From assembly GCA_902801465.1 (NCBI GenBank), contig CADCIH010000008.1:4772-68771 (forward strand): a stretch of DNA of 64,000 nucleotides, written 5' to 3'. The position numbers and the translations under genes were made by a program. Source of the stretch: an uncultured Bacteroidia bacterium. Its GTDB lineage: Bacteria; Bacteroidota; Bacteroidia; Bacteroidales; F082. Positions 7,679-45,541 of the stretch are shown here, in pieces (positions within the stretch are counted from its first letter, which is position 1; each line of letters starts with the position of its first letter). A model generated the notes under the pieces. It saw only the letters and a list, made by a program, of their open reading frames with translations. It did no database searches and was not told the origin of the DNA.

Positions 7679-7695
7679 AGTAGTGTTTTTTTAGG

Positions 7696-9575: not shown

Positions 9576-9580
9576 AACAA

Positions 9581-9610: not shown

Positions 9611-9629
9611 AAGTATCTTTATGCAAATG

Positions 9630-10572: not shown

Positions 10573-10652
10573 AATGCGGAATTCGGAATGCGGAATTCGG
10601 AATTATTACCTCCGGAGGCTAATTCCGAATTCCGCATTCCGAATTCCGCATT
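10573..10652. repeat. 80-bp palindrome built of CGGAATK heptamers
   Basis: Perfect 32-bp arms: aatgcggaattcggaatgcggaattcggaatt at 10573-10604 and its reverse complement at 10621-10652. The 16-nt spacer contains the mini-palindrome cctccggagg. It overlaps the TAA of the adjacent gene. Confidence 0.9.
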
Positions 10653-27174: not shown

Positions 27175-27193
27175 TTCTCGGGTAGGTGACGGT

Positions 27194-28284: not shown

Positions 28285-31200
28285 TCAGTCTATCTCGTGC
28301 CCATTGCACTCCATATCAGTGATGCACCATCCGGTGGCATAGCAATACATCGTCAGAATGATGCTGTTTGCAGCATCAATCTCTTTTTCCGTCGCCGTCG
28401 GCGATAGATGCGACTCTTCATTGCGCCACTCCTTCATGATTAGCAGCCACTGATAGAGTCGTTGCTTGGCTTCGTCCTGGCTGTATTTCAGTTGCCACAA
28501 CGGTTGAATACCGTGAATCACATTCGCCCAAGTAACATCTTCCCCTGGATTGCGCGGGGGCACTTCCTCATTGTTCATCATGTAATAAAGCTTCCTGAGA
28601 AAAGCTTCGTATTTGGTTGAAAGCAAATTATAGGCAACAAACTTGTCAACAACGCTTGCGCCTTCCTTATACAAACTATTGAAAGCACTATGGAGGAGCA
28701 TCCCTATTCCATCAAGTTTCGGAATGGTCGTGGCATCAATCACATAAAACAAGGCTGCAACAATCTGCTTCATTGGACGCATGTATTGTTTTACACCTAA
28801 CAAAGTGGTATTCGCCAAATCTTCAACCTTGGATTTGATGATGTCGATATCAACCTGTCCGCCCTGCTGTTGCTGGTTTTCAAGCTCCTTAAATCCTTCC
28901 TCCACCGAAGTCTGCTCCACCACGGCGGTCGCCATCGTGATGTCTTCGTTCAGGTAAGCCGCCAACATCTTCTCTCGCTTCTCGGCATCCAAAATGAAAT
29001 CCTTCAGATACATGGCTCCCTTGGCAATCACCATGCGCGACTTGGGTTCTTCGCCTTCCACCTTGGTGATAAACGCCTTGGTCTTCCCGTTGTCGAGGGT
29101 CAGGCGCAAATCGTTAAACCTTCCGAAGTCGTCCAGGTTCTCTTCCGTGGGGTTAGCCAGTATCAGCTGCTCCAATCCACTGATGCTCGCTCCAGTCGCC
29201 TCGGCAAACAACAACGCCTGCTTGTGCAGCTCCTTCAGCTGGTATTCGTTGATGTAGTCCTGGATGGTCTTGCCGGCCTCTGGCCTCAAATCGCCGCTCT
29301 GGATGTCGTGCAGTATCAGGATGGCGGTGCGCTGGTCTTTCTGGGGCAGCGACGCAAAGGTCTTGTGCAGCTCCCTCAGGGCTTCCTTGGTGGGCTCGCT
29401 TCCGGGACCGTCGGTATAGAGTTTCTTGATGAACCTCACAAACTTCGAGTTGATGTACTCGGCATCGATGGTGCCAGTACCTGTCTCGGTTATGTAGGTA
29501 TCCACTGGGTAGTCGAAGTCGTAGTCCGTGGGATCGCCACCTTCGCCGCCTCCAAACAGCTCGCGGTAACGCTGTAGCAGGATGAGGTAGGTGTTCTCGT
29601 CAAACTCCATCTTCACATAAGTAAAAGTATCGTCGTGCCTGAACTCATATTCGGCCTGCTCCCAAGTGAATCCTTGCAGCTTGGCAGCTTCAAGCAAACG
29701 GGTCATACTGCTGAAGTCCTTGGCAAACATGTTCTTGTCTTCCCTGGTGTCAGGCAACCTCTCAAAATTGAACAGCTCGTGCGAGAAGAAGATGTCCCTG
29801 ATGTGCAGGAACTTCCGGTTGATGTTCATCAGGTTGTCTTCAAGCTTGTCCACAAACACACCTAACGGCCTGTCCACATACACCTCCAGGGCATCGTTGA
29901 TGTTCTGCTCCATCGTGTAGGGGAACGTATAGTAATAGATGGTGCCAAACGGTTTGTCGGGACCGAACACACGGTTGGTTCTTGAGAACGATTGAATCAC
30001 GTCCACATAACGCATCACCTTGTCCACATAGAGGGTGTTCACCCATTTCGAGTCGTAGCCGGTCAGCATCTGGGTCACCACAATGAGCAGGTCTATCTGC
30101 TTCGTGTGGTCGTGGTCGATGTCCTTGTAGGGTTTCTTGTGGGCCAGTCGCTTGGCCACGTCTTTCTTGTATTGCAGGTAGTTGGGCAGTCCAAACTGGG
30201 TCTGGTACTTGCTGTTGTAGTCGTCAAGCATCTCCAGTATGGCATCCTCTCGGGCAATGCCCTCGTCGCTGTTGTCGATGTTGTTGTCAAAAACGGCCAC
30301 CACGTTCATCGATGAGTATTGCGTCTTGAACAGCTCATAGTAGGCAATGGCCTCGGGGATGTTCTTCGTGGCCAGTATCGCATGGAACTTCCTGTTTTTG
30401 CTCAGACGTTCAAACTTGCCCATGATGTCGGCAGCTACGGCCTGATGGTGGATGTCCTGCTGGTAGAGCTGCTTGGGTAGGTAGTGCTCCACGCCGTGTT
30501 TGGTCTCACCGTTCTCGGTGTAGGTGTCCACCATCTTCATCTCGTGCATGAACTGGTCATACACCTTCATGGCTTCCTCGTTGTCTTCGATCTCTTCCAG
30601 GCTGTGCACCTTCAGCTGGGCAAAGGCGGCCTTCTCTCTCAGCTCGTCATCGTCGTATGTGTTCACGCGGTACGGGTCAAAGCCCAGCACGTTACCGTCG
30701 GGAATGCCGTTGGCGATGGTGTATTTGTGGAGCATGTCGCCAAAGATGGTGGCTGTGGTGATTTCGTTGTGGGCATTCTCCTCAAACACGGGAGTTCCCG
30801 TAAAGCCGAAGAGCAGTGCCCTCGGGAAGGTGTGCTTGATGGTCATCAGCATCTCGCCGAATACCGACCGGTGGCATTCGTCAATGATGAACACCAGCCG
30901 TTTCTTTCCAATGCGCTCGATGGTCTCGGGGGTGATCAAAGCGCCCGGCACCACGTTCGACATCTTTTGGAGCGAAGTCACAATCAGTCGGTTGTCGGGG
31001 TCGTTGCTTTCCAGCTTGCTCACCAGTATCTGGGTGTTCTGGGTGTCTTGTATGGTATCGTCTTCTCCGGCAAAGCCCCGGTATTCGTCGAGCGACTGTA
31101 TGCCCAGCTCTATCCTGTCCATCAGGAACACCACTTTCTCGGCATCGTTGCTGGTGGCAATGAGCTGTGCCGACTTGAACGAGGTCATCGTCTTGCCCGA

Positions 31201-32118
31201 TCCCGTCGTGTGCCAAATGTAGCCGCCTCTATGCTCATGGTCGTCCCAGTTGGTCTTGTGGGTGATGTCGCATATCTTGCTGGTGGCGTAGTATTGGTAC
31301 GAGCGCAGCACCTTCAGGGTCTGGTCTTTGTCGTCGGCAATGGTGTAGTAGCCTATCAGCTGGTGGGCCATCGGTATGTTGAGCAGCTCGGCCACAACGC
31401 GGTTCCATTCAAAGATCTCGTTGTTGTTGAAATCGGCCCAGTGGAACTGGAACTCTTTCTGGAACCGGTCTTCACTCCCGGGGTTGGCAAAGTAAAGGGT
31501 CTTTTCGGGGGTCATGGCCACAAATATCTGCACCATGCTGAAGATGCCGCTGCTAAACACGCCTTCGTGCATGTAGCGCTTCAGCTGGAACACGGCTTGC
31601 GACACATCCACCCTGCTCCGCTTCAGCTCCACATGGATCACGGGCATACCGTTGATGAGCAACAGCACATCGCCTCTTCTATCACCGGCCAGTGGGTTGC
31701 TGGCCTTGAATCGGGGCTGGCGCACAATCTGGTAGCGGCTTTGCCCCGAGCTGATCTCAGCGGGGTCGAATATCTTCAGATACACTTCCTTGCCGTAGTT
31801 CATCGTGTCGGCAGGGTTGTCGCGCTTGATGCAAACAAACTTGCCATTGATGAACTTGTTCACCTTGTAGGGACTGCCGGCCATGTTCACCTGGTCAACA
31901 ATCTGCTGCATCTCCGTCGGGGTAAGCGGATAGTTGCCCAGCCGCTCGTTCTCGCGGTTCATGTCGTAGATGATGTTGGCCCAGTTGTCAATCAAGTCCT
32001 GCTCCGTCGGGTGGTGCATTATCTCAGTACTCCACCCGTGGTTGGGCAGCAATTCGCACAAGGCGTTCTCAAACTCCAGCTCCTTCTCAAAAGGACGAAT
32101 GTTTAATGTGTTGCTCAT
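28285..32118 (-). CDS. hsdR: Type I restriction enzyme R subunit with a C-terminal HEPN-like extension
   Basis: PD-(D/E)xK region GDVLLLINGMPVIHVELKRS. Helicase motifs HTTGSGKTMTSF, FIIDECHRS and TGTPVF. 1277 aa, with a C-terminal tail containing RNEESH (Rx4H). Confidence 0.9.
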   Translation of the reverse strand: MSNTLNIRPFEKELEFENALCELLPNHGWSTEIMHHPTEQDLIDNWANIIYDMNRENERLGNYPLTPTEMQQIVDQVNMAGSPYKVNKFINGKFVCIKRDNPADTMNYGKEVYLKIFDPAEISSGQSRYQIVRQPRFKASNPLAGDRRGDVLLLINGMPVIHVELKRSRVDVSQAVFQLKRYMHEGVFSSGIFSMVQIFVAMTPEKTLYFANPGSEDRFQKEFQFHWADFNNNEIFEWNRVVAELLNIPMAHQLIGYYTIADDKDQTLKVLRSYQYYATSKICDITHKTNWDDHEHRGGYIWHTTGSGKTMTSFKSAQLIATSNDAEKVVFLMDRIELGIQSLDEYRGFAGEDDTIQDTQNTQILVSKLESNDPDNRLIVTSLQKMSNVVPGALITPETIERIGKKRLVFIIDECHRSVFGEMLMTIKHTFPRALLFGFTGTPVFEENAHNEITTATIFGDMLHKYTIANGIPDGNVLGFDPYRVNTYDDDELREKAAFAQLKVHSLEEIEDNEEAMKVYDQFMHEMKMVDTYTENGETKHGVEHYLPKQLYQQDIHHQAVAADIMGKFERLSKNRKFHAILATKNIPEAIAYYELFKTQYSSMNVVAVFDNNIDNSDEGIAREDAILEMLDDYNSKYQTQFGLPNYLQYKKDVAKRLAHKKPYKDIDHDHTKQIDLLIVVTQMLTGYDSKWVNTLYVDKVMRYVDVIQSFSRTNRVFGPDKPFGTIYYYTFPYTMEQNINDALEVYVDRPLGVFVDKLEDNLMNINRKFLHIRDIFFSHELFNFERLPDTREDKNMFAKDFSSMTRLLEAAKLQGFTWEQAEYEFRHDDTFTYVKMEFDENTYLILLQRYRELFGGGEGGDPTDYDFDYPVDTYITETGTGTIDAEYINSKFVRFIKKLYTDGPGSEPTKEALRELHKTFASLPQKDQRTAILILHDIQSGDLRPEAGKTIQDYINEYQLKELHKQALLFAEATGASISGLEQLILANPTEENLDDFGRFNDLRLTLDNGKTKAFITKVEGEEPKSRMVIAKGAMYLKDFILDAEKREKMLAAYLNEDITMATAVVEQTSVEEGFKELENQQQQGGQVDIDIIKSKVEDLANTTLLGVKQYMRPMKQIVAALFYVIDATTIPKLDGIGMLLHSAFNSLYKEGASVVDKFVAYNLLSTKYEAFLRKLYYMMNNEEVPPRNPGEDVTWANVIHGIQPLWQLKYSQDEAKQRLYQWLLIMKEWRNEESHLSPTATEKEIDAANSIILTMYCYATGWCITDMECNGHEID

Positions 32119-32132
32119 ATTGATTGGTTGTT

Positions 32133-34115
32133 TTATGCTATGAATTGATTAAGGCAAGCCTTCTTCATTTGGTTCAGTTTCTCCAACTGCTGCGTCTCCA
32201 ATGAAATCCGCTTGTCAAGACAGGTAAAGAAAGACGCAATGCGATTACGTTCTTCTTTCTCCTTGGGAATATAGAACTGGCATTTTTCAAGTTCATCCTT
32301 ACTCAGATTTCCAATCGTTCCATTTCCACCTGACACACCAGTTACAAGAAACTCTTTATACCAACTGGCTCCCATGCAAGCATTTAAGAACTCTGCTTCG
32401 TCTGACGACACAAGATACATAAAGCCTCCAGGAACCATTTTATCATTTTCGCACGACACCAGGCAATGTTTGCCAACCAACCTTGGCGACCCATTTGCTG
32501 CTGTCACAAGAATATCTTTGTTTTTTGCCAATGGTATATTAACGCATTGGGCATCGACAAACACGTCCGAAAATGATACAGTGAACGCATCCTCATCTAT
32601 ATTAGATGAACGCAAGACACGAACGCCTCTGTCACAAACATCCTCTGGACTATAAGTAAGTCCTCGCCTAATCGTTGCTATATCACTGAATCTAATCATA
32701 ATCCATTCTCCGTTAAATCCTCTGAATCTGAGGGGGGGGGTAATTGATTGATTATCAGTGAATAACAATCTTAGACAAGATTGCTTCATCTCTTTAAGTC
32801 GCTCTAATTGTTCATGTTGAGCAGAAATCTTCGAATCAAGTTGATTGAAAAACTCCGCTATTAGTTTTTGTTCTGAAGAATCCTTTGGATGACGAATGGG
32901 CATTTGTCCAAAGATTTCATCAGATATAGACAACCTGTCAAATCTTGCACCTGTATTGCCATTGTCAAACATGAATTTATGCCATCTATTTGTTTTGAAA
33001 AAACAACTCAGATAATCTTTGTCAATGCCATCAACTTTGAAAACATAATAGAGTGGCGACATTACACCCGCATAGCCTAATTGGTTTCTATTTATTGGAC
33101 CAACAGGAGCTGCGGTAGAAATACGAGGATTATACACAAAATCATCGTTTTCAACTACATAATACCCTCTAATGTTATCGCCATTGGATATATCATGGTC
33201 AAAAAAGTCTAACTGATTGATAATTCCAAATTCAGCTGAATTAGTCAAAGTTATTCTTACTGCCAAGTCAGTATTCTTCTTCGTCACTTTCTTGCTAATT
33301 TCACTTAGTTTAGTGACAACCCAGTCATCATCAAAACCTTTAAAACGAAGAGCTGGCACACTTTCGTTTTGCAGCGGAAACATCGTTTCTAAACAAGCCG
33401 ATTTGAGTTGTTTCAACTCTTCAAACTGTTTTTGATAAACCGTCACCTGTTCGTCGAGCCTCTGCAAGAAAGATGCGATTTTTCTCTGCTCATCAATATC
33501 CTTCGGAATCATGATATAGCCAGTAAGCGCAGTTTCATCGCTGATATTCATGGTGTTTTTGGCTCCTTTGTTCACCAACGGCCTCATGTAAGCATTCAGC
33601 CGCCATGCAGGATCAAAGTAGTAGTGAATATACTCAGGAGCAACACCCTCTTTGGTGTTATATACAGCATAGAGTACGGACACTATACCGGCTTTGCCTC
33701 TATTCATTTTCACGATGCCGTATGGCTTCGCCCTAAGTGGTGATTTCGTATAAACAATCTGCCCAGGGCGCAAAATCTTATAGCCACTCACTGACTTTCC
33801 TGCATAGCTCCTGCCAAGATGCTCTATCTGATTAACCACGCCGTAGTCATCAGAAACCGACAAAACATCTTCAACGCCAAAAGCGTTGTCGATGTTTTTC
33901 TCATCCGATATTTCAAGGCAGTCGCTAAGCAACTTCTTTTCCCACGCTCCTTCAAATCCTTTGAAGCGCAGTCTTGGGGCACTCTCCCCTTCTTGCGGGA
34001 ACAGCATATGGACACAATCCTCCAAACTGCTGCAGGAGGTCTCTTCAGGCGTGGTCAGCACCAGCTCGTCCACCTGCCCGTCATCGCCTTGTAATATGAT
34101 CTCTTTCTCAGCCAT
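32133..34115 (-). CDS. hsdS: Type I R-M specificity subunit with three TRD-CR modules
   Basis: Three module starts: RLRFKGFEGAW (aa 48), ALRFKGFDDDW (aa 255) and PLRFRGFNGEW (aa 461). Three coiled-coil conserved regions: EQRKIASFLQRLDEQ..., EQKLIAEFFNQLDSK... and ERNRIASFFTCLDKR.... Confidence 0.85.
   Translation of the reverse strand: MAEKEIILQGDDGQVDELVLTTPEETSCSSLEDCVHMLFPQEGESAPRLRFKGFEGAWEKKLLSDCLEISDEKNIDNAFGVEDVLSVSDDYGVVNQIEHLGRSYAGKSVSGYKILRPGQIVYTKSPLRAKPYGIVKMNRGKAGIVSVLYAVYNTKEGVAPEYIHYYFDPAWRLNAYMRPLVNKGAKNTMNISDETALTGYIMIPKDIDEQRKIASFLQRLDEQVTVYQKQFEELKQLKSACLETMFPLQNESVPALRFKGFDDDWVVTKLSEISKKVTKKNTDLAVRITLTNSAEFGIINQLDFFDHDISNGDNIRGYYVVENDDFVYNPRISTAAPVGPINRNQLGYAGVMSPLYYVFKVDGIDKDYLSCFFKTNRWHKFMFDNGNTGARFDRLSISDEIFGQMPIRHPKDSSEQKLIAEFFNQLDSKISAQHEQLERLKEMKQSCLRLLFTDNQSITPPLRFRGFNGEWIMIRFSDIATIRRGLTYSPEDVCDRGVRVLRSSNIDEDAFTVSFSDVFVDAQCVNIPLAKNKDILVTAANGSPRLVGKHCLVSCENDKMVPGGFMYLVSSDEAEFLNACMGASWYKEFLVTGVSGGNGTIGNLSKDELEKCQFYIPKEKEERNRIASFFTCLDKRISLETQQLEKLNQMKKACLNQFIA
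32732..32740. repeat. G9/C9 homopolymer inside hsdS at the CR2/TRD3 junction
   Basis: The plus strand reads a-ggggggggg-t. On the coding strand this is ACC CCC CCC CTC (T-P-P-L, aa 458-461). Confidence 0.95.
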
Positions 34116-34127
34116 ATCTCATCCCCC

Positions 34128-36698
34128 TTATAAGTTCAGCTTACGCAAGCCTTCCAAGGCGTACTCGTCACCATTGAGGTCAGCCACCAAATCAGCCATT
34201 TGTTGCTTGGCCTCAGCCAGCTTCTTATCAAGGTCTTGGTACGAGACAGAATACTTGTGTACGAGTATCGTCACGCGGTTTTCTATCTCCCTAAGCACCT
34301 CGGTCAGTGTCCTATTGACACCTGCCACAACCGGGTCAATCCATTTCTTGTGCAGGAACATTTCCACCTCCTCGTCGGTCAGGTGCTCTATGGCCTCCTT
34401 GGTCTTGTCTATCAATTCGGCCTTGGCCTCTTTGATTTCCTTTTTCACCTTGGTTTGCTCTTCCCATAGCTTCACCAGTCTCACCAGCTTCGCCTTCGTC
34501 TCAGGCTCTATTTCGTCGCCCTTGGCCTTGGCATCCTTCTTTATCTTCGCTTTGTCCAACTTCGGGTCGTCGTCGCCGTCCAGATACTCCTGTGCCTCCT
34601 CTTCCGTGAAGCTGTCCCGCAGCTCGTCAACCTCAGTGTCTATCTCCTCATTTCGCGCTTCCTTCTCGCTTATGGCTTGCAGTTCCGCTTGGAACAAGGT
34701 TTCCTGCACCATCGGGAACGGGATGATACGGCCTTTCAATCCATCGGCCACTTCTATTTCCTCGTCACCCTTTTTCACCAGCTTATAAGCCGTCTCAACC
34801 TTTCTTGCCGCATCCATCCCTTCGGTCTGCAAAGTCTCTATATCGTTGGCAATCGTCGTCCATTCGTTGCTTAAAGCTTGGTAGGCAGCATAGCGGTCTA
34901 CCAATGGAATACCCTTATTTCTCAGGAAAATGTCATCCGCTATTTCATAGCGTTCCTTCATTTCCCTCACAGTGGCCACGTTGGTGATCAACCTACGGTG
35001 TAGTTCCTCGTCAAAGCCTTCAAACGCCTGCTCAAACTGCTGACGCAGCTTGGCAGTGTCGCGGTCGTGGGCAATAACGCTGGCCACGTCATCGGACGTA
35101 ATGGCCGAATAGGGTTTGTCCTCCGCTGGCTGGAACAACTCCACCCGCAACGAGGGCAACGCCTCCCAGTACTCCTTCAATCGGTCTATCTCGCTGTTAG
35201 GGATGCCGCCAAACATGGTAGCATAGATGTCATAAAGCTCAGGAGCCTCCGACGAATCCACATACCGAGGGATATTCAGGTTGTAATTGTTCTGTCTAAT
35301 GATATCACGGCTTACCTTGCGCGAATAGCCTGGCTCGTCGCTGCGCAGGCGCACCGTGTCGGCAATGCGCTTGATATCGCAATCACGCAGCCTGTTGTTC
35401 TTACCATCCTTCACGAAGCCCTTCGAGGCATCGATGATCAGCACATCGTCATTCTGACGGTGCTGCTTCAGTACCATGATGAGCGTAGGAATACCCGTGC
35501 CAAAGAAGATGTTGGCAGGTAAACCGATGATGCAATCAATCTGGTTTTTCTCAATCAGCCTCTTACGGATTTTGCCTTCTCCCTCATCCTCTGGGTCACC
35601 TCTGAACAATACGCCGTGAGGCAACACGATAGTCAGGATGCCGTCTGGCTTCAGGTGGTGTAGCTCATGCAGCAGGAAGGCGTAGTCTGCCTTGCTCTTC
35701 GGTGCAACACCATAGTCCTTGAAGCGGGCATCCAGTTCAGCGTCCGTGGGGTCCCAGTGCTGCGAGTAAGGCGGATTTGATACCACGGCATCCACATACA
35801 GCGGTCGCCCTGCATTGGGGCCAGTCTTTTCGATTGGCCAGTCCTCATCTAATGAGTCGGCGCAGCGCGTGTCGATGTTGCCTGGTCTGATACCACGCAT
35901 CACAAGGTTCATGCGCGTCAGGTTGTAGGTGTTTTCCTTCAGCTCCTGCGCGTAGTATTTCACGCGGTTGCGGTCTTCTATGTGACGGCCAACACTCTTA
36001 CCGATAGTGATGAGCAGCGAACCCGAACCGCTCGTGGGGTCGTAGATTTCAATCTGCTTTTTGTCCTTATGGTGCTCGGCCACGATTTCCGACATCAGCA
36101 TGGCCACCTCATGCGGAGTGTAGAACTCTCCAGCCTTCTTTCCCGCGCTTGCGGCAAAGTTGCTGATAAGATACTCGTACACATAGCCCAGCACGTCATA
36201 GTCCTGTGAGCCGTCCGTGGGAATATCCTTGATGAGCTTGATCAAGTCTTTCAAAGCCTTGGTCTGCGAAGCTGGATTTTCGCCAAGCTTGCTCAATCCG
36301 GCTTGCAGGGTGATGAAGATTTTCTCATACACATGCTTATAGTTGGGGCTAATCATGCGATCAAACGTGTTGAGCGCAACGCTCAGGTCGGCCACGTTGA
36401 ACGTGCTATGAGGCAGCAGCCATGTCGAGAAAAGGTTTTTATATTCGATGAAATAGCCGATGCTGTTTTTGCAGTCCTCAATGGTCACGGCCATATCTTC
36501 GTCGTCATAGTTTTCAACCAGGTCTGGCAAATCCTCTTCCGTCCATCCGCTCTTCTTCAGATGGGCAACCTCGTTATCCGAAAGGAACTTATAGAAGATA
36601 AGGCCAAGAATATAGTCCTTATACTCACTGGCATCAATCTTCGACCTCATCTTATTGGCCGAAGCCCAAATCCTGTTTGCTAGTTGTTGTTTGTTCAT
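34128..36698 (-). CDS. hsdM: Type I R-M N6-adenine DNA methyltransferase subunit (long form)
   Basis: HsdM_N-type N-terminus (LANRIWASANKMRSKIDASEYKDYILGLIFYKFLSD), SAM motif YDPTSGSGSLL and catalytic VVSNPPYS. The C-terminal extension of about 350 aa is coiled-coil-rich. Confidence 0.9.
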   Translation of the reverse strand: MNKQQLANRIWASANKMRSKIDASEYKDYILGLIFYKFLSDNEVAHLKKSGWTEEDLPDLVENYDDEDMAVTIEDCKNSIGYFIEYKNLFSTWLLPHSTFNVADLSVALNTFDRMISPNYKHVYEKIFITLQAGLSKLGENPASQTKALKDLIKLIKDIPTDGSQDYDVLGYVYEYLISNFAASAGKKAGEFYTPHEVAMLMSEIVAEHHKDKKQIEIYDPTSGSGSLLITIGKSVGRHIEDRNRVKYYAQELKENTYNLTRMNLVMRGIRPGNIDTRCADSLDEDWPIEKTGPNAGRPLYVDAVVSNPPYSQHWDPTDAELDARFKDYGVAPKSKADYAFLLHELHHLKPDGILTIVLPHGVLFRGDPEDEGEGKIRKRLIEKNQIDCIIGLPANIFFGTGIPTLIMVLKQHRQNDDVLIIDASKGFVKDGKNNRLRDCDIKRIADTVRLRSDEPGYSRKVSRDIIRQNNYNLNIPRYVDSSEAPELYDIYATMFGGIPNSEIDRLKEYWEALPSLRVELFQPAEDKPYSAITSDDVASVIAHDRDTAKLRQQFEQAFEGFDEELHRRLITNVATVREMKERYEIADDIFLRNKGIPLVDRYAAYQALSNEWTTIANDIETLQTEGMDAARKVETAYKLVKKGDEEIEVADGLKGRIIPFPMVQETLFQAELQAISEKEARNEEIDTEVDELRDSFTEEEAQEYLDGDDDPKLDKAKIKKDAKAKGDEIEPETKAKLVRLVKLWEEQTKVKKEIKEAKAELIDKTKEAIEHLTDEEVEMFLHKKWIDPVVAGVNRTLTEVLREIENRVTILVHKYSVSYQDLDKKLAEAKQQMADLVADLNGDEYALEGLRKLNL

Positions 36699-36724: not shown

Positions 36725-36732
36725 CAAAAATA
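36725..36732 (-). promoter_or_regulatory. -7 promoter box (TATTTTTG) in front of hsdM
   Basis: Reverse complement of caaaaata. It ends 27 nt upstream of the hsdM ATG, inside the 68-nt gap after the Hsp70-fold gene. Confidence 0.5.
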
Positions 36733-36766: not shown

Positions 36767-38335
36767 TTAATCGTCAGTTATTCCATGTTCATACGTCGTT
36801 GACTCTTCCAACGACACTCCCCTATATGCCTCTTCAACGATGGCAAAAAGCGTCCTGTAGGAAATCAGCGGGATTCTCCTGTCGTCACTTCCGCACAGCG
36901 CCAATCCAAGTGCGGTTGATAACATGGGGATCTTGTTTGACACTTCCAAAGCATCATCTATAGAGTAACTATTCAACAATGCAGAGCCCATATGTATTAC
37001 ATCGGTAAAGCCCATATACGGCTTGCGTAACTCAGGTATCATTGAACCGCCCCCAGTGAAAACGACAGGTCTTTTTGTGACAATATCGGTTGCTTCGCTT
37101 TGTTTGACTCCAATACTTTGTGCATGGTGTTTTATCTTCATCGAAAAGTAATCCATCCTGTTTTCAACCGCTTTGAAGTGTGCGTCTAGCCCATCTTTTT
37201 CAATGGCATTTACGCCATAGGGTATCGATACGTAGTCAAAGATCTTCACTTCATCGCCAAGTGGAGCCACAAAGATACTTATATCCGTAGTACCACCGCC
37301 AATATCCACCACAGCGTTTACTCCCGTTCCAAATCGTTTCTGCATCGCTAATGGATTAAGGTTGGCGTAGGCTTCCGGGAACACAAATATTTGGTTATCC
37401 TCTTTGGCTGTCTCAGTAAACTCTTTGATGCGAGTTACGCTCTTTAGTTCATCAAGGGTAGCCGCCAAAAACAGTTCCTTATCGTGCTCAAAAACATTCT
37501 CAATCAAGTCATACACCGTCAGGATAATCTGGGTCGCCCTCCGCTTGTTTGTATCCCAATTCTTTTGTCCGCTCGATGTGCCCATGCTGACAATAAGGTT
37601 TTGGGTTCCATATTCCGCATCCAAGTCAAAAAACACAAAACACAGATACCAGATTGACACCAACATTGGATCCAAGTCAAACCGCCATTCAAAACCATCC
37701 GAAAACACCATTTGCTTAAAACTTCTGAATGTCGCCGGAATCATTTCTTGTTCCCTATGCTCATATTCCTCCCATATCCGCATCCTGCGTTCATAATCAT
37801 TCCGAAGCCTCTCATTAAACGCATCCACTTCTTGTTTGTCCTGGGCGATATCTTTGTCCCGTTGAATGCATTTTCTTTCATACTCTGCTTTGGCTTCCTC
37901 ATATAGTTCCATCTCTATCTTGCGACGCCATGCTTCTTTCTCAAGCTGTTTTTTGTTCTCAAGTGCTTGTCTCAAATCTGAGAAGGCTGAAATCGTATTC
38001 TTCTTTTTCTTTTGATTGCCATCAGCAGGAGCTTCCGGCCTTTTAGGTTCTGGAAACTGTTTGTATTTGCGATATACCGGCATCTCCGGCCTTTCCGGTG
38101 CTTTGTCTTTTGCTACCGCCACAACCATAGCCGCATCGTCTATATCGACAAAACCATACGAAAGAGTGTTGTCTTTATTAATCTGAACTACTGACGGAAA
38201 AACAAAACCTGGATCGCCGTTCTGGTCCCGAAATCTATGGAACAAATATCTCCTATTCCTTTTGTCCGAACTATCCTCAATACATATCTTGGTATAGTGA
38301 GTTCCAAAATCCAAACCAACTTTTACAGCAGCCAT
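36767..38335 (-). CDS. Hsp70/actin-fold (ASKHA) ATPase with a large charged coiled-coil insertion
   Basis: Phosphate-1 motif VGLDFGTHYTKICI, phosphate-2 motif VVDIGGGTTDISIF and adenosine motif VFTGGGSMIPELRK. An insertion of about 110 aa is K/E/R-rich (aa ~95-205). Confidence 0.75.
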   Translation of the reverse strand: MAAVKVGLDFGTHYTKICIEDSSDKRNRRYLFHRFRDQNGDPGFVFPSVVQINKDNTLSYGFVDIDDAAMVVAVAKDKAPERPEMPVYRKYKQFPEPKRPEAPADGNQKKKKNTISAFSDLRQALENKKQLEKEAWRRKIEMELYEEAKAEYERKCIQRDKDIAQDKQEVDAFNERLRNDYERRMRIWEEYEHREQEMIPATFRSFKQMVFSDGFEWRFDLDPMLVSIWYLCFVFFDLDAEYGTQNLIVSMGTSSGQKNWDTNKRRATQIILTVYDLIENVFEHDKELFLAATLDELKSVTRIKEFTETAKEDNQIFVFPEAYANLNPLAMQKRFGTGVNAVVDIGGGTTDISIFVAPLGDEVKIFDYVSIPYGVNAIEKDGLDAHFKAVENRMDYFSMKIKHHAQSIGVKQSEATDIVTKRPVVFTGGGSMIPELRKPYMGFTDVIHMGSALLNSYSIDDALEVSNKIPMLSTALGLALCGSDDRRIPLISYRTLFAIVEEAYRGVSLEESTTYEHGITDD

Positions 38336-38336
38336 A

Positions 38337-41300
38337 TCAGATTATTTTTATCAAGTTCAACATCATTAGTTTATCGGAAACGGTTGGTTCGCTAACCGAA
38401 TCCAATTCCTGTAACCTCAGCACAAGGTCATCTTTAAGTTTTCTCAGCTGACCCCTACGGGCAGGCAACACTCTTTCAAGGTTTGCCTTCTTTTCCAACA
38501 GAGTCCCCTCGCTCCCATCTTCAAAGAAATCATATGTTGAATCACCCCTTCCTTCGCCAATTAAAATGTCACAAACCCTGATGTTGGTTTCAAACCTTTC
38601 GATGGTCTCCTCTTCATCTTTAATCTGCTTTTTATACCTCGCTTCAATTCCGTTCCGTTGATGCTCAATGTCGTTCCTTTGCTTCCTCGAAACGATTTCC
38701 TTATAATCATTTCTGTAGTCCCTTATCGAATCCGCGAAACAAGACCTCATATCATCTACAGCCTTCTCGTCGGGACGATAGACATCCTTCGAATCCCATG
38801 GCAATCCCGAAGTTTGGACGGATCTGTAAACGGCATCCACAAACTCCTGGTCTGCCACTATGTCCATTCTTCCAACATCATACAAAACGGGATGCACCTC
38901 TTGCGTTTTCCTTGATTGTCCATACCTGAATGATTCCGTGACAACATTATAAATAGCTAAAACGTAATAGCCTTTGTTTATCGCCATCCCTTCTTCAGTA
39001 TTCATATCAGAGCATTTAAGTTGATAGCGAAATACGCCAGCTTCTTTTTCAACCTGTTCTTTAATTTTTTCTTTGGCTACAATCACGAAAGGATGGTAAA
39101 TACTTAGATATGGTATGGCTCGATTGGTTTCGGCTACTTCCTGGCTAAAAGTCACCTTGAACGACGATTTGTCCCGAATGGTATTGACAAAGCCCTTGAT
39201 CATGTCACCATTTTCACCTCGGAGTGTGGTGTAGGTATTCAACAGGTTTACAATTACCTTCGGCTGGCTCTGGGGAACGGAAATTGAAACCAATCCATCT
39301 TTGTTGGCCTCACTTATGGTACACGTAGGAAGTGTCTGCTTGAAAAGCATCCTAACATAGTTCTCAAGTTCCTGTTCTGTGACGTATGCTTTATTGTTGA
39401 TGATGGCATTCAAATGGTCGCGCAAATAGGAGTCGCTGGTGAAAGTGGTTGATAACTCCCTTTCTATTTTTTTCGAATCTTCCATATTGCGTTGCAGCGC
39501 CCTGTCAATTCGCGTCAGCTTTTCTTCCCGTTCCTGCTCCGTTAGTTCTATACGATACAGGTTGCTCTCTAACTCATCGGCTATAGTGGTATTTTCATCT
39601 AGCCTTTGGCTCAAAATAGGTTCCAGGTCACCTATGGTCCTTCTAAATTCTTCTATTCTTTCCTGTAACCTGCTGTGTATCCTTTCCTGAACCGTACCTT
39701 TCACAAGCATGTTATAGATGTGGATAATCTTCGATTGTTGACCGATTCTGTCAATTCTACCGATTCGTTGTTCAACAACCATGGGATTCCATGGCAGGTC
39801 ATAGTTTACAATGGTATCGCAGAATTGCATGTCAAGACCTTCGCCACCAACCTCTGTCGATAGCAAAACCGTAACAGATTTGTCTTTCTTAAACTCGTCC
39901 ACTGCATTGATACGGCTTAACCTGTCGAGCATTTTACCGCTGATAACACGGTAACCGATTTTATTCATGGCAAACCTTGCAGCCAAATAGTTGATCGTAC
40001 TATGGAAATGGGCGAATACTATGACTTTCCCGTTACCCTTAGTCTGGTTCTCATGTATAATCCGCATCAGTGCATCATACTTGGAATCAACCAAGCCTTC
40101 ATAGTTATAGGTATCGCTATCGTTGGCATAAAGACTACTGGCTATCATCTGTTGGTGCGTGGAACTCGCTAGTGGCGACAGACCTTTAAGGTCATCCATA
40201 AACATATCAAACAGCTCTTGTTCGTCCTTGTTCAATTCAACCTTGACGGTTATCGTGTCTCGCTTCGCTTGTGAAAGATCGGTCGTAACGTCCACCTTTC
40301 GTGTTCTTGACATAATGGAACTCAACGGATTGATGTCATACAAATCGCTTTGAATCAAAGTCCTTTGTTTTGGTGTGTCCTCCCCTTTTAGTTTTTCCAT
40401 CAGAGGCTCAAACAGCGGCAATCTCCTTACATAATCATCCTCGTCAATCATATCATCCAACCCCTTCCTTATCTCCTCAAACGAAGCATTCCCGTTAAGG
40501 CTATTAAGCGCCCACACAAAAGGTTCGTTATGCCTTGACTCATCTTCAAAGACGGATTCACTATCATAGCGTTGACTGTTTAGTAGGTTGAGCAGATGAT
40601 AAAGATTCGTCCGTCCAAGCATAATGGGTGTTGCCGTAAGGAACACTGCCGACTGGGCGTGACGCAACAACCGCTCTATGGCGTCATGCTGCTTGGTATT
40701 GGCATTGCGTACCCTATGTGCCTCATCACACACTACCAAGCTGAATTGATATCCCAAGTCCTCTACCTCTTTGACCACGCTCTTTTTCTTTGTATCCCGT
40801 AACGTATCGTATGAAATAATGCCTCGGGCGTTTCCATTATGCGATCTCAATTCTTTCAATAGCTCATCTTTTTTGTCGTATATTTGAAACATCAAGCCAA
40901 ACCTATCCTCAAGTTCCCCTTGCCATTTGTTTCTTAATCCTCCAGGGCAAACCACCAATACATTCTTCAGCTCATTCCTGGCTTTCAACTCAAGCATGAT
41001 ATGGCCGGCCTCAATGGTTTTACCCAAACCCACTTCATCAGCGATAAGCAGCCTCTGAAGGTCCGAGTTTAAGAACTTCATTAATGGGATGTACTGGTAG
41101 GTCTTGAACATCGTCCTCGATGCCTTAATGGACGACAATGTGTTATTGCTCGAGTTCTCAATCTTAAATGTCGTGTTGAACACCTGAAAGTCGTTGTACC
41201 CCTTAAAATCCCCAAGAACACATCGATCGAATAAATCTTTCACTTCGACAAACCGTTCCAGGTCTCTTTCCGTTACATCTCTGATATCCTCTTGACCAAA

Positions 41301-41411
41301 AAAAACACTATATTTTTGATCGCCTCTTACATGAGGCAATACCTTGACAACTGTTCCTCTTTGGTTGGTATTGATGTCGGTTACAACATCACCTATATTA
41401 AACTCGGCCAT
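38337..41411 (-). CDS. SNF2-family helicase, RapA/HepA-like, with an SH3/Tudor-like N-terminus and an uncharacterised C-terminal domain of about 420 aa
   Basis: Motif I ADEVGLGKTIEAG, II LVVCDEAHRVRN, III FLTATPI, and V/VI LLSTEVGGEGLDMQ...NYDLPWNPMVVEQRIGRIDRIGQ. The N-terminus reads FNIGDVVTD...RGTVVKVL. Confidence 0.85.
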   Translation of the reverse strand: MAEFNIGDVVTDINTNQRGTVVKVLPHVRGDQKYSVFFGQEDIRDVTERDLERFVEVKDLFDRCVLGDFKGYNDFQVFNTTFKIENSSNNTLSSIKASRTMFKTYQYIPLMKFLNSDLQRLLIADEVGLGKTIEAGHIMLELKARNELKNVLVVCPGGLRNKWQGELEDRFGLMFQIYDKKDELLKELRSHNGNARGIISYDTLRDTKKKSVVKEVEDLGYQFSLVVCDEAHRVRNANTKQHDAIERLLRHAQSAVFLTATPIMLGRTNLYHLLNLLNSQRYDSESVFEDESRHNEPFVWALNSLNGNASFEEIRKGLDDMIDEDDYVRRLPLFEPLMEKLKGEDTPKQRTLIQSDLYDINPLSSIMSRTRKVDVTTDLSQAKRDTITVKVELNKDEQELFDMFMDDLKGLSPLASSTHQQMIASSLYANDSDTYNYEGLVDSKYDALMRIIHENQTKGNGKVIVFAHFHSTINYLAARFAMNKIGYRVISGKMLDRLSRINAVDEFKKDKSVTVLLSTEVGGEGLDMQFCDTIVNYDLPWNPMVVEQRIGRIDRIGQQSKIIHIYNMLVKGTVQERIHSRLQERIEEFRRTIGDLEPILSQRLDENTTIADELESNLYRIELTEQEREEKLTRIDRALQRNMEDSKKIERELSTTFTSDSYLRDHLNAIINNKAYVTEQELENYVRMLFKQTLPTCTISEANKDGLVSISVPQSQPKVIVNLLNTYTTLRGENGDMIKGFVNTIRDKSSFKVTFSQEVAETNRAIPYLSIYHPFVIVAKEKIKEQVEKEAGVFRYQLKCSDMNTEEGMAINKGYYVLAIYNVVTESFRYGQSRKTQEVHPVLYDVGRMDIVADQEFVDAVYRSVQTSGLPWDSKDVYRPDEKAVDDMRSCFADSIRDYRNDYKEIVSRKQRNDIEHQRNGIEARYKKQIKDEEETIERFETNIRVCDILIGEGRGDSTYDFFEDGSEGTLLEKKANLERVLPARRGQLRKLKDDLVLRLQELDSVSEPTVSDKLMMLNLIKII

Positions 41412-41471
41412 AATCTTTTCAGTTCTTATTCATTTGCAAATAAACAACAAACAGGTTCAGTCATATTAAAC

Positions 41472-42479
41472 CTATTTTCCATACAAATCAAAAGCTTTGG
41501 TTAAACGTTCTTTTATTCTGTCTTGAAGCTCTTGTGGTTCAAGCACCATAATACCTTCACCGTACGACAGCAACTGTTGCTGCAACTCGAAGTTCAAATA
41601 AACCTCAATGGTGATGATGGCACCGCTGTCGTCAACGCTAAGCACATGCTGTGACCCATGGAGAGGTTTGGTCATGATGTAAGGCCATGTTTCGGGCGAT
41701 ACCCACAGCTTTATAAGCCGGGGTTCTTTCCTGGAGTCTTTGGACACACCGATCATTTCATCGAAATAATCAAAGAAATCAACATCAGTAGGACGATATG
41801 GCTCAGAAGAGTCATCGATGGCAACAATGCGGTCGAAAGCATAGTTGGCCATAAAGTCAGCCTCGGCATTCCAGGCAATCAGGAACCAACGCTTGTTGTA
41901 CTGCTTAAGGTAATAGGGATGAACCGTGATGGTCCTTTGTTCGCTATGCCCAAAACCTTTATAGGTCAGGCGAAGAGCCCGCTTGTCAATAATGGCATTG
42001 AAAAGTGGCGTAAAGTGTTCCATTCCCTTCAGATCAAGATTCTCGTCGAATCCCACCACCTCCTCCGTCGGCACCTCATCAATCTTCAGCGATGCGCCCA
42101 ACCTATCGGCAATCTCAGTAATCCAATCGAATTGCGGCATCCCACGAAAACGCTTCAGTAGGCTAAGGGTTTGTATGAGTTGTACCGTTTCATCGGGTTT
42201 CAGCAGCGACCTATAGATGGAAAAATCAGGGTCGGCGTAATGGTAATAAATATTCCTCCCCTCACGGTAATGCTCAACCGCCGCTCCCGGATAAATCCGC
42301 TCAATCTGCTCGATATCGTTGCGGATGGTATTCATTGCAGTGATGGGCTGAAAGTCTCTCCTCTCAAGCTCTCGGTTGCACAATTCGAACATCTCCGCCG
42401 TAGAGTAATCGCGGTTGCGGTCGCTCAAGCAGCGGTCAATGACCTTGATGCGCAAATCGGAACTTTTGGAATTAGGCAT
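41472..42479 (-). CDS. HTH plus WYL-domain transcriptional regulator (BrxR/CapW-like architecture)
   Basis: N-terminal wHTH-like region. WYL region TITVHPYYLKQYNKRWFLIAW. C-terminal extension domain. Confidence 0.8.
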   Translation of the reverse strand: MPNSKSSDLRIKVIDRCLSDRNRDYSTAEMFELCNRELERRDFQPITAMNTIRNDIEQIERIYPGAAVEHYREGRNIYYHYADPDFSIYRSLLKPDETVQLIQTLSLLKRFRGMPQFDWITEIADRLGASLKIDEVPTEEVVGFDENLDLKGMEHFTPLFNAIIDKRALRLTYKGFGHSEQRTITVHPYYLKQYNKRWFLIAWNAEADFMANYAFDRIVAIDDSSEPYRPTDVDFFDYFDEMIGVSKDSRKEPRLIKLWVSPETWPYIMTKPLHGSQHVLSVDDSGAIITIEVYLNFELQQQLLSYGEGIMVLEPQELQDRIKERLTKAFDLYGK

Positions 42480-42709: not shown

Positions 42710-43111
42710 ATGAAACAGATAGAATCTATAAAAATTGGTCGGTTAAGATTTACCATTGCCAAGAAAATAAATCGAAAGTGCGCCGATATATATTTATCCT
42801 CTAATTATCAGAAGCATATTGAGCGTCGACACAAAAAAGAATTGGAACAAATAGGCCTATCGGCGGTTGACTTCGTTAAAACAGTGGCAAAAGGTTTCAA
42901 CCAAATACGAGAAGGAACAGGCATTTCGATTCTTTTAGTGATTTTTAATGATGATTTGAACTATACTGCTGGAATAGATTTATCGTTATCTGGCGACCAT
43001 TGGGAAGTGAAAACAGCGGAACCCAGAAGAAGAGAGGATATTGAAAAAAGAAAACTCCTATGGGAGAAACAGCACACGTTTTCAGCGAATCGCCGCCGTT
43101 CGCTTCCTTAA
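42710..43111 (+). CDS. Hypothetical protein, possibly a PBECR-type (barnase/EndoU/colicin-like) nuclease fold
   Basis: It lies divergent from the WYL gene, with a taactttg box at about 42678. IYLSSNYQKHIERRHKKELEQIG resembles the H..RH core of PBECR domains. The last dozen or so codons run into GC-rich flanking DNA. Confidence 0.35.
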   Translation: MKQIESIKIGRLRFTIAKKINRKCADIYLSSNYQKHIERRHKKELEQIGLSAVDFVKTVAKGFNQIREGTGISILLVIFNDDLNYTAGIDLSLSGDHWEVKTAEPRRREDIEKRKLLWEKQHTFSANRRRSLP

Positions 43112-43306
43112 ACATCTCAGGCCATTTCGGCGGTCTGCCTGAGATTAGTGCTTGGAGCCATAGGAGTTTTCCAATGCTGCAAAAATACAAAAAAAAACAT
43201 TCACTACAATATTTTCATTAAAAATCAATAAAACAAAGCATGGAATAAAAAAGTTTTATATCTTTGCAGCGTCATTTGGAGGAATTCGCAGAAAGGACGA
43301 CAACCT

Positions 43307-44122
43307 TTATGGCCTTCGGGTCGTTTCGAGCCTCAACTTAAACGCCAAATAATTGCCCTGGTCTTTCTTGGAAGTGTAAACGGCGAACTCGATCGTACTG
43401 AAATGGCTCAGCAACTCGGGAACGACTAACTGGTAAGCCGATGCCACCACATTGGGATCGTTTCGGAACGCGCCGCAGCCAAAAGCACCCAAAATCAGCA
43501 CCTCAGCGCCATTCTGGGCCGCCACAGCCATAATCCTTCGGGCACGCCGCTCGTGGATGGCAAACAACGCCTCAGAGCTAATCTCATACTCAAACAGATT
43601 GGGTGCCGCACAGGTGATCACATCCACAACGAAAGGCTCCGACAACAGGTTGTAATCGTCGTCCTTGATCACCACCACACCAGGGGTGTAGATGATGTCG
43701 TCGTTGTGAAGCGGATTGCGAGCGGCACGGTGCGGCGCATAAAACCGCTCCCACATCGCCTTGTCCTTCAAGCATGGATACAGCGTCGAAACCCTGCAGA
43801 GACACTCCTCCTGGGCCGAAGCGCCCGTTTCGACACCACCGCCAGGCGAGGTGGACGAAGCGAAGTTCAACACCGCCACCTTCTTTCCACGGTAGTTTGC
43901 CGCGGCCTCGAACGAACGGTTATGGGTCACCAGCACCTTGGCAGGCTCCACATAACGAGGCACACCGGCATCGATCTGCTCCCCCTCGGGAACGAATACT
44001 TGTTTGGTGATGCTGTCCTTTACCGCCATCTGCAGCTCCGGATTGCTCTTGACACGCGACATGGTATCCCTAAACACCGATACCAGCTGTTTCTTTCTTT
44101 CAAAATAGGATGAGTAGCTCAT
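43307..44122 (-). CDS. TIGR02452-family macrodomain (microbial PARG-like) protein
   Basis: Motifs VAVLNFASSTSPGGGVETGASAQEECLCR, VITCAAPN and LILGAFGCGAFRNDP. Confidence 0.75.
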   Translation of the reverse strand: MSYSSYFERKKQLVSVFRDTMSRVKSNPELQMAVKDSITKQVFVPEGEQIDAGVPRYVEPAKVLVTHNRSFEAAANYRGKKVAVLNFASSTSPGGGVETGASAQEECLCRVSTLYPCLKDKAMWERFYAPHRAARNPLHNDDIIYTPGVVVIKDDDYNLLSEPFVVDVITCAAPNLFEYEISSEALFAIHERRARRIMAVAAQNGAEVLILGAFGCGAFRNDPNVVASAYQLVVPELLSHFSTIEFAVYTSKKDQGNYLAFKLRLETTRRP

Positions 44123-44194
44123 ATTATTTCTTTTGATTCTATCGCTCTATACACTGACAAAGATAGGAAAAAAATGATAACTTTGCAGCCAATC

Positions 44195-45430: not shown

Positions 45431-45541
45431 ACCCCTGTTCATAACTTCCGACATTTTTCCCCTTTCGGAACAGGGATTATGTTGTACTTTTGTAATGCGA
45501 AAAGCAAACGAGTTTTTCACCTTTTTTACGAGATACATACC

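Follow-up and report, generated by a model that had tools for sequence, protein, structure and literature searches.

Conserved pairing of an SNF2 helicase with an Hsp70/actin-fold ATPase: a candidate two-gene defence cassette of Bacteroidota

Introduction

In this study, a 64,000-nt stretch of the Bacteroidia contig CADCIH010000008.1 (the window, to whose full length all coordinates refer) was analyzed. On its minus strand lie six genes: a WYL-WCX transcription regulator, an SNF2 helicase, an ATPase of the Hsp70/actin fold (the acetate and sugar kinase/Hsp70/actin fold, ASKHA), and the hsdM, hsdS, and hsdR genes of a type I restriction-modification (R-M) system. The locus raises the question of which of these genes belong together and whether they serve defence. 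An earlier reading of the sequence (the original prediction) had proposed the regulator, the helicase, and the ATPase as a defence module upstream of the R-M operon.

The helicase and the ATPase were found to be a tightly coupled, widely conserved, and co-inherited module, and the functional unit is two genes rather than three. On balance, this pair is probably an autonomous candidate defence cassette, directed against phages or mobile elements and carried as mobile cargo of Bacteroidota defence islands. The reading rests on strict synteny, a conserved junction, co-inheritance, discrete boundaries, defence-type neighbours, and cargo-slot equivalence. It is also consistent with the fast-evolving insertion of the ATPase, the intact catalytic residues in both ATPases, and the precedent of DISARM class 1 and ietHAS.

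Conservation and Linkage of the Two Genes

One genome per GTDB species was scanned with ATPase-derived patterns, which yielded 79 loci (individual homologous loci or contigs are labelled L0xx). Nearly all were from Bacteroidota (Bacteroidales, Marinilabiliales, Flavobacteriales, Sphingobacteriales, Chitinophagales, and Balneolales), and a few bins were labelled otherwise. An SNF2 homologue was located directly upstream of the ATPase on the same strand in 78 of the 79 loci; the sole exception was a contig with just 318 nt upstream of the ATPase. In the reciprocal test, four helicase homologues were chosen regardless of their partner, and for each of them the next gene downstream encoded a homologue of the ATPase (hmmsearch, 1e-111 to 1e-240). 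The expectation that homologues of the two genes co-occur as adjacent pairs across Bacteroidota was thus borne out.

In the window, a single nucleotide lies between the helicase TGA (38339-38337) and the ATPase ATG (38335-38333), as the original prediction had stated; the sequence of this TGA-T-ATG junction implies translational coupling. The stop-start gap was between -4 and +7 nt in 66/77 loci and at most 24 nt in 76/77. The pairwise identity matrices of the helicase and the ATPase were correlated with r = 0.92, and none of 999 Mantel permutations gave a value as high. Of the two proteins, the ATPase showed the lower conservation in 99.6% of comparisons.

A third conserved gene was sought by all-against-all clustering of 875 neighbour open reading frames (ORFs), and none was found. 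The commonest neighbour family of the pair was present at 12/79 loci. The genes within 40 nt upstream of the helicase differed in family by locus, and a conserved third gene was therefore rejected.

The layout of the window was as described in the original prediction. The ORF coordinates showed WYL, SNF2, and ATPase genes co-oriented with hsdMSR, and the spacer between the WYL stop and the helicase ATG measured 60 nt. No terminator-like site separated the minus-strand genes between 36.7 and 42.5 kb. A strict TAnnTTTG box was present upstream of the helicase in 23/75 loci, against a background of 7.8%; a sigma-70 promoter scan was uninformative for Bacteroidota. An invertible promoter 5' of the helicase, considered as a source of the contig breaks there, was rejected, as the WYL-SNF2 spacer of the window holds only a weak overlapping palindrome (I2, 83%) with no flanking arms.

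Large proteins abut the helicase at some loci. In L005 and L006, an unannotated protein of 1219-1226 aa with no Pfam or PADLOC match is encoded 11-15 nt upstream of the SNF2 gene. In L013/L036, a block of unannotated 650-790-aa proteins adjoins the helicase. These may be lineage-specific accessory genes.

Properties of the SNF2 Helicase

The helicase contains the Pfam domains SNF2-rel_dom (8.9e-25) and Helicase_C (3.4e-22). The motifs GLGKT (aa 128-132), DEAH (229-232), TATP (259-262), and QRIGRIDRIGQ (548-558) were located and were near-invariant in 58 homologues. Motifs I, II (DEAH), III, and VI together with the two domains place the protein in the SNF2 family, and the full motif set claimed for it is present.

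The top profiles of the helicase were DrmD, led by PADLOC PDLC02623 (4.9e-113); DrmD model PDLC02621 aligned helicase aa 102-945 to model positions 122-965 of 1040. Further PADLOC matches were BrxHI|BrxHII (5e-59), HmaA (8.9e-51), and BrxHII (1.2e-37). The NCBIfam profile DISARM_DrmD scored 333 bits, below its equivalog cut-off of 610. The NCBIfam RapA profile (NF003426) aligned to aa 4-783 with 204.6 bits, below its cut-off of 576, and RapA was the closest solved homologue (7.6e-38). By these scores, the helicase appears to be a relative of DrmD rather than an equivalog, and it is not an equivalog of RapA.

An SH3/Tudor-like N-terminus resembling that of RapA had been suggested. The NCBIfam RapA profile aligns from residue 4, which supports a putative Tudor/SH3-like domain as in RapA. 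When the N-terminal fragment of about 100 aa was searched alone, no Pfam or PADLOC match was obtained. A Tudor-SNF2-iREase-alpha/beta architecture has been reported for RapA-like defence helicases (PMC12839542).

The C-terminal ~420 aa had been described as lacking any recognisable domain. The Pfam search of this region indeed returned no domain, and Foldseek of its model against PDB gave no significant match (best E 0.04). The region is not an orphan, however, since DrmD profiles cover it and the NCBIfam RapA profile extends to residue 783. The C-terminal 424 aa alone matched PADLOC DrmD at 6e-7. A protein-database search with the C-terminal fragment alone gave 3 matches, and low-complexity words probably dominated the index. 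The AlphaFold2 (AF2) model of aa 590-1024 had a mean confidence (pLDDT) of 82.8. It contained an alpha/beta region and, after it, a beta-sheet domain; two very long helices (aa 882-952 and 971-1004) are inserted ahead of the final strand of that domain. This order of secondary structures agrees with the order described for the C-terminal domain of RapA/BrxHII (PMC12839542). A nuclease in the C-terminus was rejected on the absent Pfam match and the lack of a significant PDB fold match. The results suggested that the helicase is a defence-type SNF2 dsDNA motor of the RapA/DrmD class, with a C-terminus of the RapA/DrmD/BrxHII type.

Properties of the Hsp70/Actin-Fold ATPase

The ATPase contains the motifs GLDFGTH (aa 7-13, phosphate-1), FPEAYA (319-324, catalytic-glutamate segment), DIGGGTTD (344-351, phosphate-2), and GGGS (428-431, adenosine). 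They were invariant or almost invariant across 60 homologues, and the ATPase is therefore expected to be catalytically competent.

An AF2 model was built from 60 homologues (pLDDT 85.7, predicted template-modelling score (pTM) 0.74). The top Foldseek matches of the model were nucleotide-binding domains of DnaK/Hsp70 in PDB (E 3e-7, probability 1.0) and viral Hsp70s in BFVD. The sequence profile matched MreB first (2.5e-5), then weaker actin-like proteins and FtsA. No family assignment was obtained from Pfam, NCBIfam, PADLOC, or PHROG; in the first three, only sub-threshold matches to FtsA, MreB, EutJ, and PDC-M61B were found, all at DIGGGTTD. Membership of PDC-M61 was rejected, the PDC-M61B match at this motif covering 36 residues (E 0.001). 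PDC-M61A was absent from the best 25 of the 46 PADLOC matches of the helicase. No precomputed Pfam domain was present among the 120 listed ATPase homologues. Pfam HSP70 did not match, and the model stops at the nucleotide-binding domain, with no substrate-binding domain. The Foldseek matches, the nearer MreB profile, and the missing substrate-binding domain together point to an ASKHA fold with Hsp70-like geometry outside the Hsp70 family proper. As modelled, the ATPase has the Hsp70 fold but is no Hsp70 chaperone. The family comprised 163 clusters at 50% identity (E<=1e-30) among 1.84 billion representatives.

The original prediction had also noted that the phosphate-1, phosphate-2, and adenosine motifs are split by a charged insertion, and this was confirmed. 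The insertion (aa 73-205) is at the position of subdomain IB. It has a linker with conserved P80, P83, P95, and P100, and in the AF2 model it holds a single E/K/R-rich helix of 76 residues (aa 118-193). It is the most variable part of the protein in sequence, and its length is also highly variable across the family. Compared with P0005, one ATPase homologue, identity was 47-49% in the insertion and 74-79% in the core.

Comparison with Known Systems

The comparison covered PADLOC-DB v2, NCBIfam, Pfam, and PHROGs, and no complete instance of any of their systems was found at the pair. A literature search on SNF2/DrmD together with Hsp70/ASKHA in a defence context gave nothing relevant. The view that an SNF2 protein plus an Hsp70-fold partner is an unnamed system therefore stood for the pair; it did not stand for the helicase, whose DrmD match is given above.

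The helicase is homologous to DrmD of DISARM class 1 over almost its full length, C-terminus included. It differs in its score, which is under the NCBIfam DrmD cut-off, and the obligate partner of the pair is an Hsp70/actin-fold ATPase, which DISARM lacks. Among the 10 proteins at 25.7-45.4 kb, no DrmB or DrmC was found, and the sole DrmA match was a secondary match of the SNF2 protein. DrmA, DrmB, DrmC, and DrmMI were also not found as conserved neighbours in the 79 loci. No dedicated DrmMI was present at the locus; the only methyltransferase there is the type I HsdM, which is missing from ~85% of related loci.

Type 3 BREX, with BrxHII, and the DUF499-centred Hma combine a RapA-like helicase (Tudor, SNF2 core, alpha/beta with a coiled-coil insert) with a second ATPase (PMC12839542). 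The pair is similar in having a RapA-like helicase beside a second ATPase, and its helicase matches BrxHI|BrxHII and HmaA. The second ATPase of those systems is a P-loop protein (BrxC or DUF499) and they have a core methyltransferase, while the ATPase of the pair is ASKHA and most loci are without a methyltransferase. PglZ, BrxC, PglX/BrxXI, and DUF499 gave no match among the same 10 proteins. Hma was rejected because HmaC is a DUF499 P-loop ATPase (PMC12839542), and the ASKHA-fold partner has no DUF499, BrxC, or P-loop match. Since DrmA/B/C, DrmMI, PglZ, BrxC, a DUF499 ATPase, and a dedicated methylase are missing, the pair is not DISARM, BREX type 3, or Hma.

RapA is an SNF2 ATPase that recycles RNA polymerase. 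Among solved structures, it is the closest homologue of the motor core, with a profile reaching over aa 4-783 and an equal domain order. It differs from the helicase in score (205 vs 576 bits), and the gene here is accessory, island-borne, and always accompanied by the ATPase.

The system ietHAS consists of IetAS and a DrmD-like SNF2 helicase; it has been validated experimentally, and the helicase is essential (PMC13069673). This example shows that a DrmD-like SNF2 helicase can be joined to unrelated partner proteins (PMC13069673). In ietHAS, which is from Pseudomonadota, the helicase works with a protease and with an AAA ATPase, both unrelated to the ASKHA ATPase. By analogy, the pair looks like another configuration of DrmD-like helicases, with a partner fold not previously reported beside SNF2 motors.

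CnuD of CoCoNuT type III is an Hsp70-like protein in McrBC-type systems (PMC11090510). The likeness lies in an Hsp70-like protein with an NTP-driven nucleic-acid motor in a defence setting (PMC11090510). CnuD has both nucleotide- and substrate-binding domains, degenerate Walker-like motifs, and an McrB GTPase partner, whereas the ATPase of the pair has only the nucleotide-binding domain, intact motifs, and an SNF2 partner. No McrB-like GTPase or McrC/DUF2357 was found at the locus by Pfam and PADLOC. Identity with CnuD was rejected because partner and architecture differ. New here are the pairing and the ASKHA partner; the helicase class, and defence-island helicase-plus-ATPase cassettes as a kind, are already known.

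Relation to the Type I Restriction-Modification Genes

The hsdM, hsdS, and hsdR genes together form a complete type I R-M system at 28285-36698 (-) according to Pfam and PADLOC, and HsdM is a canonical type I methylase (PADLOC MTase_I, 1158 bits). The block of pair and hsdMSR was also found in L091/L092 and L082, and in L091/L092 the order of six genes was identical to that of the window. The amino acid identity between the window and L091/L092 was 95% for HsdM, 88% for HsdR, 81% for SNF2, 68% for WYL, 67% for the ATPase, and 55% for HsdS. The identities of HsdM (95%) and the ATPase (67%) within one conserved block indicate that the pair and the R-M genes differ in history.

The helicase and the ATPase of L080 were 96% and 95% identical to those of the window. 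The nucleotide homology spanned window positions 41413-36769, which are the two ORFs within 2-3 nt, and began again 21 nt 5' of the hsdM ATG. Between the pair and hsdM, L080 has a 176-aa gene and a WYL gene. Since the homology is limited to the two ORFs and other genes precede hsdM, the pair is a discrete cassette acquired apart from hsdMSR, as the original prediction had suggested. The TAnnTTTG box attributed to hsdM was also found: a TAttTTTG box lies inside the 49-nt stretch between the ATPase stop and the onset of the L080 hsdM homology.

The GC and GC3 (third codon position) values were 0.43/0.49 for SNF2, 0.44/0.45 for the ATPase, 0.51/0.66 for hsdM, and 0.53/0.74 for hsdR, with a window GC of 0.47. 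The described difference between an AT-rich cassette and GC3-rich hsdM and hsdR was thus reproduced, but not its use as a sign of foreign origin. Composition alone cannot tell which module is foreign; the GC of the pair (0.43) is nearer to that of the window (0.47) than is the GC of hsdM/hsdR (0.51-0.53). By the homology boundaries and identities, the pair occupies a cargo slot, and the type I R-M is a neighbouring system with its own history.

These comparisons bear on the explanation that the pair is an accessory of modification-dependent restriction. It would then be either a system like DISARM class 1, BREX type 3, or Hma in degenerate form or an aid to the type I R-M beside it, and the DrmD-like helicase would work with the HsdM methylase and the HsdR nuclease. 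The best profiles of the helicase (DrmD, BrxHII, and HmaA) all come from methylase-containing systems (PMC12839542), and the order of pair and hsdMSR is kept in the window, L091/92, L082, and L010. Type I R-M genes occurred within 10 kb of the pair in ~8-12/79 loci (roughly 10-15%), compared with ~1% per random 20 kb, a rough guess of the authors that was not computed. However, ~85% of loci are without a type I R-M gene inside 10 kb, and no DrmA, DrmB, DrmC, PglZ, BrxC, or DUF499 homologue is among the 10 genes of the region. The different histories of HsdM and the ATPase, the genes separating the pair from hsdM in L080, and the promoter-like box of hsdM itself also make an accessory role unlikely.

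Two further features were observed in the R-M proteins. HsdS has three Methylase_S stretches, which resemble target-recognition domains, where two are usual; its L091 homologue has 651 aa and is 55% identical. The C-terminal ~440 aa of HsdR are a long extension past the EcoR124_C-like region. The extension has no Pfam match; its sequence 'WRNEESH' fits the pattern Rx4H and in this recalls HEPN RNases.

Genomic Neighbourhood and Mobility

The recurrent neighbour families of the pair were Schlafen-AlbA2/HATPase_c_4/HTH, WYL, type I R-M, YhcG/DUF1016 (PDC-S02), AAA_14-DUF4143 (PDC-S01), an SF1 helicase (PDC-S68), type IIG enzymes, McrBC, GmrSD, and HNH. The defence-type proteins among the 121 immediate neighbours were 5 HsdM, 5 WYL, 5 Schlafen-AlbA2/HATPase_c_4, 4 AAA_14-DUF4143, 3 type IIG, 3 PDC-S68 helicases, 2 YhcG, 2 McrBC, 2 GmrSD, and 2 HNH. 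In all, ~30% of the immediate neighbours bear restriction or defence domains (summed Pfam counts, in which multi-domain proteins may be counted twice, without a genome-wide background). The proximity to defence genes expected from the original prediction was found to this extent; for R-M in particular it was limited, type I R-M lying next to only ~10-15%.

Contig ends clustered on both sides of the pair, 135-600 bp 5' of the helicase (13/77) and under 900 bp 3' of the ATPase (12/77). This clustering points to strain-variable cassette boundaries, as expected of such a cassette. Neither 72,556 plasmids nor 50,697 phage genomes held a match to the ATPase, and 2.9 million IMG/VR contigs gave one good match (1-2 in all). 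Plasmid or phage carriage of the pair was rejected on the lack of ATPase matches in plasmids, phages, and PHROGs.

In L089/L090, an islet at 2780-11850 contains a tyrosine integrase, a resolvase, a WYL_2 protein, a small ORF, the SNF2 and ATPase genes, and a 313-aa ORF. It is flanked by housekeeping genes, with an ECF sigma factor on one side and an OmpA-like gene and metK on the other. The gene content of this islet suggests integrase-mediated mobility of the cassette.

An explanation with no immune role was also considered, in which the helicase is a RapA-like factor of transcription or chromatin that has the ATPase as its cofactor, or the pair serves a mobile element (maintenance, actin/ParM-like segregation, or anti-restriction). 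The architecture of the helicase is RapA-like and its closest solved homologue is RapA, the ATPase profile is nearest to MreB, actin-like, and ParM proteins, and the L089/L090 islet carries an integrase and a resolvase. The patchy distribution and the different location in every genome are unlike a housekeeping factor, and the RapA score is far under its cut-off. The pair is absent from the plasmid and phage records, although genes for segregation or anti-restriction should occur there, and its recognisable neighbours are mostly restriction and defence genes rather than conjugation or replication genes. A non-immune function is therefore considered improbable.

The WYL Regulator

The WYL protein contains the Pfam domains WYL (2.2e-14) and WCX (4.8e-12), as do defence regulators of the BrxR/CapW type, and matches PADLOC WYL (7.6e-31); no HTH family was above threshold in Pfam. 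A WYL gene was present within 10 kb of the pair in ~10/79 loci and was an immediate neighbour in 5. It was directly upstream of the helicase, co-oriented, and 39-60 nt away in the window, L091/L092, and L004. It was downstream of the pair in L056, L061, L064, L048, and L080, and on the opposite strand in L014 and L068.

A different cargo was found in L093. A WYL gene whose product is 91% identical to that of the window immediately precedes the cluster hsdR-hsdS-AAA_13-hsdM; a CD-NTase gene comes after this cluster, and the pair is absent. A divergent 133-aa gene accompanies WYL in L093 too, 83% identical to that of the window. The homology between the window and L093 spans 43194 to 41435, stopping 24 nt before the helicase ATG. 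Since nearly the same WYL and 133-aa genes precede different cargo in L093, the WYL unit heads interchangeable defence cargo. WYL is a facultative head-of-operon regulator and not a core component. Expression of the pair in the window is probably WYL-controlled. The best reading of the window is a WYL-controlled composite island, with the pair between the WYL-WCX regulator and type I hsdMSR. Such regulator-headed cargo swapping, in which nearly the same WYL heads different operons by strain, could guide the search for more systems.

It is very unlikely that WYL, SNF2, and the ATPase constitute one defence module of three genes, with a WYL regulator dedicated to it: although WYL heads the pair closely at the loci named and its frequency (~10/79 within 10 kb, 5/121 immediate neighbours) is above random-gene expectation, ~87% of loci are without WYL inside 10 kb, its position and strand vary, its 91%-identical copy precedes other cargo, its identity to L091 is 68% vs 81% for the helicase, and the L093 homology breaks inside the WYL-SNF2 spacer. 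As a general statement, the three-gene module of the original prediction was largely refuted.

The 133-aa ORF is divergent from WYL and matches the PBECR3 nuclease family weakly and below threshold (E 0.0054). A candidate structured RNA of ~122 nt is antisense to the 3' end of this ORF. It has a 14-bp perfect closing stem, a minimum free energy of -51.7 kcal/mol (z -3.5), a TAtttTTG box 5', and a U-run 3'; no Rfam match was found. Its homologue, L093:7324-7445 (+), is 92% identical, compared with 82.5% for the sequence around it, and two of its base pairs differ by compensatory changes (C:G to U:A and A:U to G:C). The ORF may be toxin-like, with the antisense candidate RNA as its counterpart.

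Proposed Function of the Pair

From these features, we infer a defence function, a physical complex, a sensor role, and a mode of interference. The helicase and the ATPase would form a complex. By means of its proline-rich/long-helix insertion, the ATPase would be the subunit that senses or confers specificity, gated by nucleotide. It would license or tether the SNF2 motor on invading DNA, or on the RNA polymerase transcribing that DNA, and the RapA-like Tudor N-terminus of the helicase could contact the RNA polymerase. The motor would then strip or stall the replication or transcription machinery. In its specific form, this mechanism is doubtful. No recognisable nuclease is present in either protein, which argues for non-degradative interference or for reliance on neighbouring nucleases. 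DrmD-like SNF2 helicases are essential in the validated systems DISARM class 1 and ietHAS (PMC13069673).

It is tentatively proposed, as a possibility rather than an expectation, that the pair is a self-sufficient and so far unrecognised Bacteroidota immune system. The fast-evolving sensor or specificity subunit of the SNF2 motor would be the Hsp70/actin-fold ATPase, in place of a P-loop NTPase, a nuclease, or a methylase. Protection would be nuclease-free, with phage complexes of replication or transcription being remodelled at the expense of ATP.

Several points weigh against the defence reading of the pair. The sampling of loci rested on two peptide patterns, and most loci came from metagenome bins. 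The majority of the immediate neighbours are not recognisable as defence, and some are BspA-type leucine-rich-repeat surface proteins. The comparison was made with PADLOC-DB v2, and the pair may have a name in DefenseFinder or in post-2023 PADLOC models. Covariation in length between the ATPase helix and the C-terminal coiled-coil of the helicase was unsupported (Spearman -0.36, p 0.15, n = 17, strict regex anchors), and pairing of the helix with the coiled-coil hairpin by length was rejected as no positive correlation was seen. A nuclease or other effector domain was sought in both proteins with Pfam, and by PDB fold for the helicase C-terminus; none was found.

If the pair is protective, the Hsp70/actin-fold ATPase would join the components known to work with defence helicases. 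The pair would also provide a minimal two-protein model for DrmD/RapA-like SNF2 motors in immunity (DISARM, BREX type 3, Hma, and ietHAS). Its family is largely confined to Bacteroidota, gut and rumen Bacteroidales included. The defence repertoires of Bacteroidota are poorly charted by E. coli-centred screens and are relevant to phage-microbiome dynamics.

Island Boundaries and Feature Coordinates

The coordinates of the features are collected in Table 1.

Table 1. Features of the 64,000-nt window and their coordinates.
Feature	Position	Strand	Remarks
SNF2 helicase, DrmD/RapA-like class (core component 1)	41411..38337	-	1024 aa
N-terminal ~100 aa of helicase, putative Tudor/SH3-like domain	41411..41112	-	RapA profile from residue 4, up to model position 55
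Helicase C-terminal region, aa 593-1024	39635..38340	-	AF2 model; DrmD profile
Helicase stop/ATPase start junction TGA-T-ATG	38339..38333	-	1-nt gap; read from sequence
Hsp70/actin-fold (ASKHA) ATPase (core component 2)	38335..36767	-	522 aa
Hypervariable ATPase insertion, proline-rich linker and helix (aa 73-193)	38119..37757	-	Alignment; AF2 model
WYL-WCX transcription regulator	42479..41472	-	335 aa; Pfam, PADLOC
TAttTTTG box (Bacteroidota -7-type)	36732..36725	-	27 nt 5' of hsdM ATG; read from sequence
hsdM	36698..34128	-	856 aa; Pfam, PADLOC
hsdS	34115..32133	-	660 aa; Pfam, PADLOC
hsdR	32118..28285	-	1277 aa; Pfam, PADLOC
HsdR C-terminal extension, ~440 aa	29601..28285	-	
133-aa ORF	42710..43111	+	
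Candidate structured RNA, ~122 nt	43171..43050	-	
KAP-family P-loop NTPase; 192-aa protein (listed together)	25705-27273; 27667-28245	-; -	Downstream of hsdR
PARG/TIGR02452-like protein; 418-aa protein	43307-44122; 44174-45430	-; +	Other island edge
dnaB	45479-47104		Beyond the island edge

Downstream of hsdR, a KAP-family P-loop NTPase matches the PADLOC candidate PDC-S20 (4.6e-127), and a 192-aa unannotated protein has a signal-peptide-like N-terminus. By these two genes, the island reaches to ~25.7 kb. At its other edge are a macrodomain-like protein of the microbial-type PARG/TIGR02452 family and a 418-aa protein whose Cas4-like match is very weak, and dnaB lies beyond them.

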